Below are positions 39,911 through 42,151 of a stretch of DNA of 64,000 nucleotides, piece by piece. Made by a program: the position numbers and the translations under genes. The stretch comes from Escherichia coli (GTDB taxonomy: Bacteria; Pseudomonadota; Gammaproteobacteria; Enterobacterales; Enterobacteriaceae). The notes under the pieces are model-generated. The model made no database searches. It saw only the letters and a list, made by a program, of their open reading frames with translations, and was not told where the DNA came from. The stretch lies in assembly GCF_011045215.1 (NCBI RefSeq), contig NZ_CP049201.1, one strand, 5' to 3'. Numbering within the stretch: the stretch's first letter is position 1; each line of letters starts with the position of its first letter.

Positions 39911-40456
39911 ATGAGTGCCAATGAAAACAACCTGATTTGGATCGATCTTGAGATGACCGGTCTGGATCCCGAGCGCGATCGCATTATTGAGATTGCCACG
40001 CTGGTGACCGATGCCAATCTGAATATTCTGGCAGAAGGGCCGACCATTGCAGTACATCAGTCCGATGAACAGCTGGCGCTGATGGATGACTGGAACGTGC
40101 GCACCCATACCGCCAGCGGGCTGGTGGAGCGCGTGAAAGCGAGCACGATGGGCGATCGTGAAGCTGAACTGGCAACGCTCGAATTTTTAAAACAGTGGGT
40201 GCCTGCGGGTAAATCGCCGATTTGCGGTAACAGCATCGGTCAGGATCGTCGCTTCCTGTTTAAATACATGCCGGAGCTGGAAGCCTACTTCCACTACCGT
40301 TATCTCGATGTCAGCACCCTGAAAGAGCTGGCGCGCCGCTGGAAGCCGGAAATTCTTGATGGTTTTACCAAACAGGGGACGCATCAGGCGATGGATGATA
40401 TCCGTGAATCGGTGGCGGAGCTGGCTTACTACCGCGAGCATTTTATCAAGCTGTAA
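39911..40456 (+). CDS. orn: Oligoribonuclease
   Basis: [27 protein letters not shown]... Confidence 0.95.
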
Positions 40457-40581
40457 AATTTTTGCTGGTCACGTAAGCGCCGGAATCCACTTGCGGCGGC
40501 GTGATTTTGACGCTAAATTGAACGTCTTGCTGATAATTTCAGCACTTGAGATAAAAACTCAAAAAAAATTTTTTAGGGGGG

Positions 40582-40609
40582 TTGCAGAGGGAAAGATTTC
40601 TCGTATAAT
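40582..40609 (+). promoter_or_regulatory. Stable-RNA-type promoter for tRNA-Gly (-35 TTGCAG, -10 TATAAT, GC-rich discriminator, upstream A/T tract)
   Basis: TTGCAG-16nt-TATAAT followed by GCGCCTCCC; A8T6 tract at 40561-40574. Confidence 0.6.
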
Positions 40610-40666
40610 GCGCCTCCCGTAACGACGCAGAAATGCGAAAATTACGAAAGCAAAATTAAGTAGTAC

Positions 40667-40742
<76 letters not shown>

Positions 40743-40760
40743 AATTCTTCTCTCAATAAA

Positions 40761-41011
40761 ATATCCACAGCGACGCGATGCGTTATTGCTGGTTTTTGTT
40801 GTCTCTGACAAACTCTTGTAAACAGAGTTATCCACAGCCTCAGGCTGTAATCTTAATTTCAAAGAAACTTCGCACGGTGAATAGTATTTTTTTAACCTAT
40901 TGATAGGTAAGTTAAAAATTAAGATTCCGTTTTGTCGAGTCGATCACTTGACGATTTTATTCGTCTTGAATTGCAATGCGTTTTTATTTTTATTCACAAG
41001 CTGTGGATGAA
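40761..41011. promoter_or_regulatory. datA: datA-like DnaA-box cluster with an IHF-consensus site
   Basis: ATATCCACA 40761-40769; TTATCCACA 40828-40836; IHF-like TAACCTATTGATA 40893-40905; TTATTCACA 40990-40998; TGTGGATGA (reverse) 41003-41011. Confidence 0.6.
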
Positions 41012-42149
41012 TCAGGCGTCACGCGGTAACCCTTTTTCAATCACCCGAACCAGACGCTGTTTTTTCGGCAATTGCACTTCGACTATGCACGCATTTCGCC
41101 TCTCGATTTGCTGCGCCATCGCCCACGCTATGTGCTCATCAAGAAGTGGGTGCTCACCTTTGCGACTCTCCAGCGCCGCCAGAATCGTTTCATCCCAGGG
41201 CGCATTGCCTAATGCCACGGCGATATTACGCAGCCAGCGCAGGTGACCTATACGGCGAATCGCCGAACCTTCCGTGACTTTTAAAAACCTCTCTTCGCTC
41301 CAGGCGAATAACTCAATGAGTTCCGGTGCGTGTAGCGGCTTACGCGGGCTGAAATCGTCTTCTGTAGTGAGTTGTGAATAGCGATTCCACGGGCAGATAA
41401 GCTGGCAGTCATCGCAACCGTAAATACGGTTTCCCATTAACGGTCGCAACTCTTCCGGGATCGCCCCTTCCAGTTCGATGGTGAGATAAGAGATACAGCG
41501 GCGAGCATCGACGGTATATGGCTCGACGATGGCACCGGTCGGGCAAATCGTCATACAGGCCACGCATTTGCCGCATCCTTCCTCGACTGGTTGATCCACG
41601 GGCAGCGGAATATCGACCAGCAATTCGCCTAAAAAGAAGAACGAACCGGCCTCGCGATTGAGGATAAGTGAGTGCTTACCTGTCCAGCCGAGCCCAGCTT
41701 TTTCAGCTAACGGGCGCTCGAGAATAGGCGCAGAATCGACAAACGGTCTAAAATTCAGCGAAACACAATGTTGCTGAATCATCTCGCCCAGCTTTTTGAG
41801 TCGGTTGCGCAGAAGTTTGTGATAGTCACGGCCCAGCGCATAACGGCTAACATAGCCGAGTTTGGGGTTTTTCAGCGTGCTGGCAAATGCGGCGTTAGCA
41901 GGAAGGTAATTCATCCGCACGCTGATCACGCGCAGCGTACCGGGCAATAACTCATGGGGGCGAGCGCGCAGCATACCGTGACGTGCCATCCAGTCCATTT
42001 CGCCGTGGTATTGTTTGTCCAGCCATGCTTGCAGTTTGGGCTCGGACTCGCTGAGATCGGTATCGGTAATACCTACCTGCTGAAAGCCCAGTTCCAGCCC
42101 CCACTGTTTAATTTTTTGCGCTAACTGATTGAGATCGAGGGGCTCTGAC

Positions 42150-42151
<2 letters not shown>
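41012..42151 (-). CDS. queG: Epoxyqueuosine reductase QueG (YjeS)
   Basis: Start MSEPLDLNQLAQKIK; 4Fe-4S cysteine motifs; ORF-track N-extension rejected. Confidence 0.9.

Follow-up and report, generated by a model that had tools for sequence, protein, structure and literature searches.

A predicted datA locus between a single tRNA-Gly gene and queG in Escherichia coli

Gene context and transcription signals

In the window, which is the whole 64-kb stretch of Escherichia coli DNA that was analysed, a single tRNA-Gly(GCC) gene (40667-40742, plus strand) is located downstream of orn (39911-40456) and is followed by a spacer of 269 bp (40743-41011), which is AT-rich (35% G+C) and is bounded by the stop codon of queG, the gene of epoxyqueuosine reductase (41012-42151, minus strand). 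The tRNA gene is called by ARAGORN, has an Rfam tRNA score of 69 bits and is identical to glyV, glyX and glyY of K-12. The queG gene, as defined by the open reading frame list and the annotations of K-12 and strain C9, is convergent with the tRNA operon. According to the same two annotations, the gene order rsgA-orn-tRNA-Gly-[datA]-queG-nnr is common to the window and K-12; the genes examined for local synteny within the 64-kb window are mscM, mutL, amiB, nnr, purA and rnr.

When the region from the 3' end of the tRNA-Gly gene to the queG stop is aligned with K-12 MG1655 (NC_000913.3, 4392659-4392927), 268 of the 269 bases are found to be identical. The sole difference is G40907, which is an A in K-12 and which lies 2 nt 3' of the core of the IHF site, outside this core. 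The spacer is better conserved than its coding neighbours, with 1 difference from K-12 in 269 nt versus 31 in the 1,686 nt of orn and queG (10/546 and 21/1140, respectively). Because of the 268/269 match and the same orn/tRNA-Gly/queG context, the region is almost certainly the chromosomal datA locus. In the initial annotation it was described as a datA-like DnaA titration locus directly downstream of the tRNA-Gly gene, for which an alignment with K-12 datA was proposed as a check. The alignment bears out the homology, and the location, between orn/tRNA-Gly and queG, is that of datA in K-12, with the tRNA gene ending at 40742 and the first DnaA box 18 nt further. [quoted passage not shown]

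The locus is present in 5,423-5,425 of the 5,426 complete E. coli genomes, and the annotations are always those of queG and tRNA-Gly. For E. coli OHT76-1 (NZ_CP135244.1) the locus queries match solely a stand-alone tRNA-Gly gene elsewhere (2048170-2048245), and the region comprising orn, glyV-X-Y, datA and the end of queG is apparently missing. This is the sole such case among the complete E. coli genomes, and it may reflect either a natural deletion of datA or a misassembly.

The putative promoter of the tRNA gene (40582-40609, plus strand) is of the glyV type, having a -35 hexamer TTGCAG, a 16-nt spacer, a -10 hexamer TATAAT and then a GC-rich discriminator (GCGCCTCCC). Its hexamers and the leader are identical to those upstream of glyV in K-12, where the function of this promoter, PglyV-X-Y, has been shown experimentally (PMC10950094). 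The TglyV-X-Y terminator/attenuator (40765-40802, plus strand) consists of an imperfect GC-rich hairpin (40765-40792) and then a T-run, TTTTTGTTGT; the RNA fold of 40743-40812 has a calculated energy of -14.3 kcal/mol (z = -1.9) and overlaps with DnaA box 1. A generic promoter and terminator scan of 40400-41100 finds no promoter and misses the tRNA terminator, because the -35 hexamer is weak (3/6 match) and the terminator stem is imperfect; both elements were located by eye, by folding and by their identity with K-12. The intergenic region between orn and the tRNA-Gly gene has four differences from K-12, at 40464, 40559, 40569 and 40575. The last three cluster in an A/T-rich stretch just upstream of the -35 hexamer of the tRNA promoter, where UP-element contacts or contacts with Fis would be expected.

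A further putative promoter, PyjeV, is predicted from the sequence at 40796-40824 (plus strand), with a -35 hexamer TTGTTG (40796-40801), a 17-nt spacer and a -10 hexamer TAAACA (40819-40824). As published, the PyjeV -35 overlaps with TglyV-X-Y and PyjeV overlaps with box 7 (PMC10950094), and the putative pair of hexamers fits both overlaps. The small ORF yjeV (40976-41029, plus strand, 17 codons), which is placed by means of the K-12 annotation via the alignment, overlaps with boxes 3 and 4 and with the queG stop. The middle base of its ATG has a conservation of 0 in other genera (39 non-Escherichia species among the matches listed), and this non-conserved start speaks against a conserved protein-coding role of yjeV. 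A terminator-like hairpin (40932-40964, plus strand), TTGTCGAGTCGATCACTTGACGA followed by TTTTATTCGT, is located downstream of the IHF site and is partly conserved. This hairpin may correspond to the "other potential regulatory elements" that interrupt datA transcription in PMC10950094.

The DnaA boxes and the IHF site

DnaA boxes were taken as 9-mers having at most one mismatch to TTATNCACA. The four DnaA-box 9-mers and the IHF-consensus site within 250 bp that had been noticed initially are all found, at 40761-41010, but the count of one perfect box needs correction, as two boxes are perfect under the usual TTATNCACA or TTWTNCACA consensus. Box 1 (40761-40769, plus strand; ATATCCACA) has one mismatch and, at the aligned position, a perfect TTATCCACA is present in 25 of 41 orthologues among the matches listed; this box overlaps with TglyV-X-Y and is dispensable for DDAH (PMC10950094). 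Box 2 (40828-40836, plus strand) is a perfect TTATCCACA and is known as a high-affinity, essential box (PMC5742627, PMC10950094), as is box 3 (40990-40998, plus strand; TTATTCACA), which has the orientation of boxes 7 and 2 (PMC5742627). Box 4 (41002-41010, minus strand; TCATCCACA) is inverted, follows 3 nt after box 3, with the queG stop 2 nt beyond it, and is stimulatory in vitro (PMC5742627, PMC10950094, PMC10380432). The predicted IHF-binding site (IBS, 40893-40905) is a perfect match to the IHF consensus, TAACCTATTGATA. It fits TAAnnnnTTGATW as well as WATCAANNNNTTR, and for the latter pattern no more than 4 matches exist in the 64 kb.

The 9-mer at 40816-40824 (plus strand; TTGTAAACA), with two mismatches and located 3 nt upstream of box 2, is probably the low-affinity box 7, having the same orientation as box 2. 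We infer this coordinate because the span from box 7 to box 3 is then exactly 183 bp, the size of the minimal datA, and because of the published overlap with PyjeV. The minimal datA is given as 183 bp, or as 187 bp in a later review, and the three essential DnaA boxes share one orientation (PMC5742627, PMC10950094, PMC10380432). The elements 1, 7, 2, IBS, 3 and 4, each of which is identical to its K-12 counterpart, thus all occur, in the order and orientation that have been published and with the K-12 spacing: the gaps are 3 nt between boxes 7 and 2, 56 nt between box 2 and the IBS, 84 nt between the IBS and box 3, and 3 nt between boxes 3 and 4.

Some further motifs are seen in and near this region. 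A box-like 9-mer between box 2 and the IHF site, CTATTCACC (40876-40884, minus strand), is not conserved and was discounted. A perfect 6-bp hairpin, ACAGCCTCAGGCTGT (40834-40848), overlaps with the 3' end of box 2 and is not conserved outside Escherichia. Inside the queG coding sequence, the 9-mers CTATTCACA and TTATCCTCA (41373-41381 and 41659-41667, minus strand) each have one mismatch to the box consensus, and one of these may be the "box 5" of the original datA fragment of about 1 kb. When 40300-41200 is searched with Rfam at a permissive threshold, the tRNA alone is matched, and no known RNA family is found inside datA.

Conservation across Enterobacterales and comparison with other elements

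One genome per prokaryotic species was scanned with the pattern TTATCCACA-N45-70-TAANNNNTTGAT-N75-100-TTWTNCACA, which matches at least 120 loci. Among the matches listed, the module of box 2, IBS and box 3 is found in about 50 species of Enterobacterales, belonging to Escherichia, Salmonella, Enterobacter, Cedecea, Buttiauxella, Pantoea, Erwinia, Tatumella, Serratia, Rahnella, Rouxiella, Chimaeribacter, Edwardsiella, Morganella, Providencia, Photorhabdus and Xenorhabdus. The gaps of these orthologues (about 40-50 Enterobacterales species among the matches listed) are confined to 55-58 and 82-86 nt, when the pattern would have allowed 26 values for each, and wherever a listed Enterobacterales locus has sufficient sequence downstream, the module borders directly on the 3' end of a convergent queG. 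The position relative to the tRNA genes is less strict: in Photorhabdus thracensis, P. khanii and Xenorhabdus anantnagensis the module is beside the 3' end of queG, with 1.2-2.4 kb inserted before the tRNA-Gly array, and the coupling to tRNA read-through may be lost or changed in these genera.

Boxes 1 and 7, which are not part of the search pattern, are also conserved. Compared with the window, the 39 non-Escherichia sequences among the matches listed have an average identity of 0.74 in box 1 and of 0.78 in box 7, versus 0.41 in the rest of the spacer. An imperfect box, with one to three mismatches, occupies the position of box 7 in 42 of 42 listed sequences. Its consensus in these sequences is roughly TTnTrAACAGAG, in which ACAGA is invariant and positions 3 and 5 are the most variable, position 5 being the N of the DnaA consensus. 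This pattern is as expected for a low-affinity site that is kept deliberately weak. The inverted box 4 is found at the same offset in the listed Escherichia, Salmonella, Enterobacter/Cedecea/Buttiauxella and Pantoea/Erwinia sequences, and at this offset it is missing in the listed Morganellaceae, Edwardsiella and Rouxiella; such patchy retention fits with its merely stimulatory role. With the fixed spacing, the ever-imperfect box 7 and the linkage to queG, rather than a strict linkage to the tRNA array, the cross-species comparison provides independent, modest support for the published model of minimal datA.

Some blocks of the spacer that match no assigned element and have no resemblance to DnaA boxes are also kept in the 39 non-Escherichia species. 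These are TTGA at 40966-40969 (0.7-0.98 identity) and CAA at 40974-40976, as well as the T-tract TTTTTATTT at 40981-40989, which directly abuts box 3; the background identity of the spacer is 0.41. It is possible that the blocks in 40966-40989 could serve in bending of the DNA or could bind the factor that is postulated in PMC10950094.

The scan also finds, among the matches listed, a recurrent module in Beta- and Gammaproteobacteria having gaps of 59 or 69 nt and of 94-99 nt. Such loci occur in Sutterellaceae (L110 and L044, between hemE and priA), Neisseriaceae (L064, L065, L036 and L120), Moraxella (L090, L092 and L121) and Methylococcales (L040, L058, L103 and L112). In most of these non-enterobacterial loci, Moraxella excepted, a second direct box is located ahead of the right-hand box (...CACAnagTTATCCACA), and the right-hand box often has an inverted box behind it. 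Being distant versions of datA is rejected for these loci, as their geometry differs and their right end resembles the DARS core (TTTTTCACAgTTATCCCAGctttcTGTGGATAA); they possibly represent elements of the DARS2 type that carry an IHF site. The Veillonella matches of the scan are located upstream of dnaA-dnaN.

DARS2, in the rppH-mutH intergenic region, resembles datA in being a non-coding element with DnaA boxes and an IHF site, in which the timed binding of IHF controls the nucleotide state of DnaA. Its activity is opposite to that of datA, as the release of ADP regenerates ATP-DnaA, and it also needs Fis. The DARS2 core of K-12 has two direct boxes and then an inverted one (TTTTTCACAgTTATCCCAGctttcTGTGGATAA). 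Such a DARS-type core, with the inverted box close to the two direct boxes, is not found in 40761-41010, where the only inverted pair is box 3/box 4 and where box 3 is not immediately preceded by a second direct box. The left half of oriC, with the R1 box, an IHF site, R5M and low-affinity boxes, is also similar to datA when considering the head-to-tail oligomerisation of ATP-DnaA on boxes of the same orientation, which is aided by the bend introduced by IHF; unlike this half of oriC, datA has no duplex-unwinding element and no origin function, and the outcome is ATP hydrolysis instead of unwinding. The DnaA-box clusters of Bacillus subtilis and Streptomyces coelicolor, which are cited as analogues (PMC10950094), are likewise chromosomal and repress untimely initiation, but they are not homologous to datA, are in another genomic context, and no IHF-dependent hydrolysis is described for them. 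The closest relative is K-12 datA itself, with which the window shares boxes 1, 7, 2, 3 and 4, the IBS, the spacing, the flanking genes and yjeV, and from which it differs by G40907, by having one tRNA-Gly gene instead of three and by the three SNPs upstream of the -35 hexamer.

Functional readings, read-through and tRNA-Gly copy number

Box-like 9-mers can cluster by chance in AT-rich intergenic DNA, and when only the motif statistics are considered, the significance of the cluster is modest: the whole window has 45 boxes at up to one mismatch, and at least four boxes in some 251-bp span are obtained in 4.5% of 1000 shuffles of the window in which the dinucleotides are preserved (p ~0.045). 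As the whole-window significance is only at this level, it is the homology to K-12 datA, and not the box count, that is the decisive evidence. In shuffles of the 269-bp intergenic stretch itself, at least four boxes are seen in only 0.04% of the cases; moreover, the region is nearly identical to an experimentally defined locus, and its architecture is kept across Enterobacterales. A chance cluster is refuted by the K-12 alignment together with the conservation across genera, and its probability is practically nil. The original datA model, a passive titration sink that soaks up many DnaA molecules after its duplication and does not catalyse ATP hydrolysis, agrees with the presence of the high-affinity boxes 2 and 3. 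It is nevertheless very unlikely, as reviews report that the datA-IHF complex is catalytic for the hydrolysis of DnaA-ATP and that box 7, the box orientation and the spacing of the IHF site are essential (PMC5742627, PMC10950094, PMC10380432). A simple sink also needs neither a geometry that is fixed within 2-4 nt nor a box that is imperfect throughout the order; this conserved geometry and the weak box argue for an ordered complex over a simple sink. For K-12, an in vitro assay has been published in which ATP-DnaA is converted to ADP-DnaA in an IHF-dependent way and in molar excess over the DNA of datA.

It can also be considered that the boxes and the IHF site primarily control transcription, of the tRNA-Gly operon, yjeV or queG, without a dedicated role in replication. 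Box 1 indeed overlaps with the tRNA terminator and box 7 with the putative PyjeV -10 hexamer, and read-through is attenuated both by DnaA bound to box 2 and by IHF bound to the IBS (PMC10950094). Still, this reading is extremely unlikely, since deletion of datA causes untimely, asynchronous initiation (PMC4585315, PMC10950094), with over-initiation and a fitness cost (PMC4585315), and since deletion of PqueG is without effect on initiation (PMC10950094). The comparison of species also counts against it, as the Photorhabdus and Xenorhabdus modules stay by queG, at 1.2-2.4 kb from the tRNA array, and as the yjeV start codon is not conserved.

The preferred reading is that of an ordered DnaA-IHF complex that catalyses hydrolysis of DnaA-ATP. 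Its mechanism, which is taken from the literature on the K-12 locus, is matched in the window by the identity, order, spacing, synteny and conservation of the elements, and it may be pictured as follows. DnaA would occupy the high-affinity boxes 2 and 3, and ATP-DnaA would bind cooperatively to the low-affinity box 7. After initiation, IHF would bind at its one site, which lies between boxes 2 and 3, and bend the DNA sharply, and the resulting oligomer would hydrolyse the DnaA-bound ATP, generating inactive ADP-DnaA; DDAH would thus back up RIDA against untimely initiation. Before initiation, transcripts from the tRNA-Gly promoter would leak through the terminator/attenuator and across the IHF site, by which IHF would be kept off, and after initiation the bound IHF would block the read-through. 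The DDAH mechanism and the read-through are described in PMC5742627, PMC10380432 and PMC10950094. The relative distance of datA to oriC is conserved (PMC4585315), and, with an origin-proximal position, datA would be duplicated soon after initiation; oriC is not in the 64-kb window, and in K-12 it is about 467 kb away.

Detailed knowledge of the datA element already exists, and the idea of tRNA read-through has also been published. The initial annotation rightly suggested that transcription from the tRNA promoter passes through the boxes, as was published for K-12 in 2024 (PMC10950094). In this study, PglyV-X-Y is the main source of RNA over the datA IHF site, with read-through being high before initiation and blocked by IHF afterwards; when the promoter is deleted, or when rrnBT is inserted upstream, IHF is held more stably on datA and the initiation frequency falls (PMC10950094). 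As for the predicted read-through in the window, the promoter hexamers, the leader and the leaky terminator are present and are identical to those of K-12.

The tRNA-Gly(GCC) copy number differs, as the window has one copy versus the three identical tandem copies of K-12 (glyV, glyX and glyY), which puts the tRNA promoter 223 bp closer to datA than in K-12. The junctions of the one-copy arrangement are exactly those of the glyV leader and the glyY trailer, which would fit with unequal recombination and equally with assembly collapse of the 111-112-bp tandem repeat. When a junction query is used, the one-copy arrangement is found in only 14 of the 5,426 complete E. coli genomes. This query, with a strict E-value cut-off, was used for counting the copies, the BLAST coverage statistics being ambiguous through the joining of pieces. 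The one-copy genomes are scattered over lineages and include the K-12 derivatives MC1061 and OV2, O104:H4 2011C-3493 and several TUM strains. In 122 genomes the entire locus is covered by one match, meaning one or two copies, such that about 108 have two copies, and among the matches listed three copies are the usual state across Enterobacterales. In the species representative E. coli SCPM-O-B-8794 (L054), box 2 and the end of orn are 122 nt further apart than in K-12. This spacing suggests four tRNA-Gly copies, although three were called by ARAGORN, in which case the copy number varies in both directions within E. coli.

An effect of the tRNA copy number on datA, as was also proposed initially, is indirectly disfavoured and is probably small, because the rise of read-through in the initiation period is kept when the array is replaced: with kan in place of the whole glyV-X-Y array, the read-through RNA still rose three-fold at initiation (PMC10950094). 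The location of datA beside queG and at a distance from the tRNA array in Photorhabdus and Xenorhabdus also argues against a large effect.

The DnaA ATP/ADP cycle of E. coli has four extrinsic regulators, of which datA is one, and all that follows from its intact presence in the window is that this genome is normally equipped for replication control. That the one-copy array together with the three SNPs upstream of the promoter might measurably change the read-through across the IHF site is considered improbable. If true, DnaA would be inactivated with an altered timing or strength in this lineage, which would then be a natural variant that connects the dosage of tRNA genes with the control of replication. 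The published model, in which tRNA transcription is coupled to datA, could be put to a test with the rare one-copy arrangement, which nature already provides.
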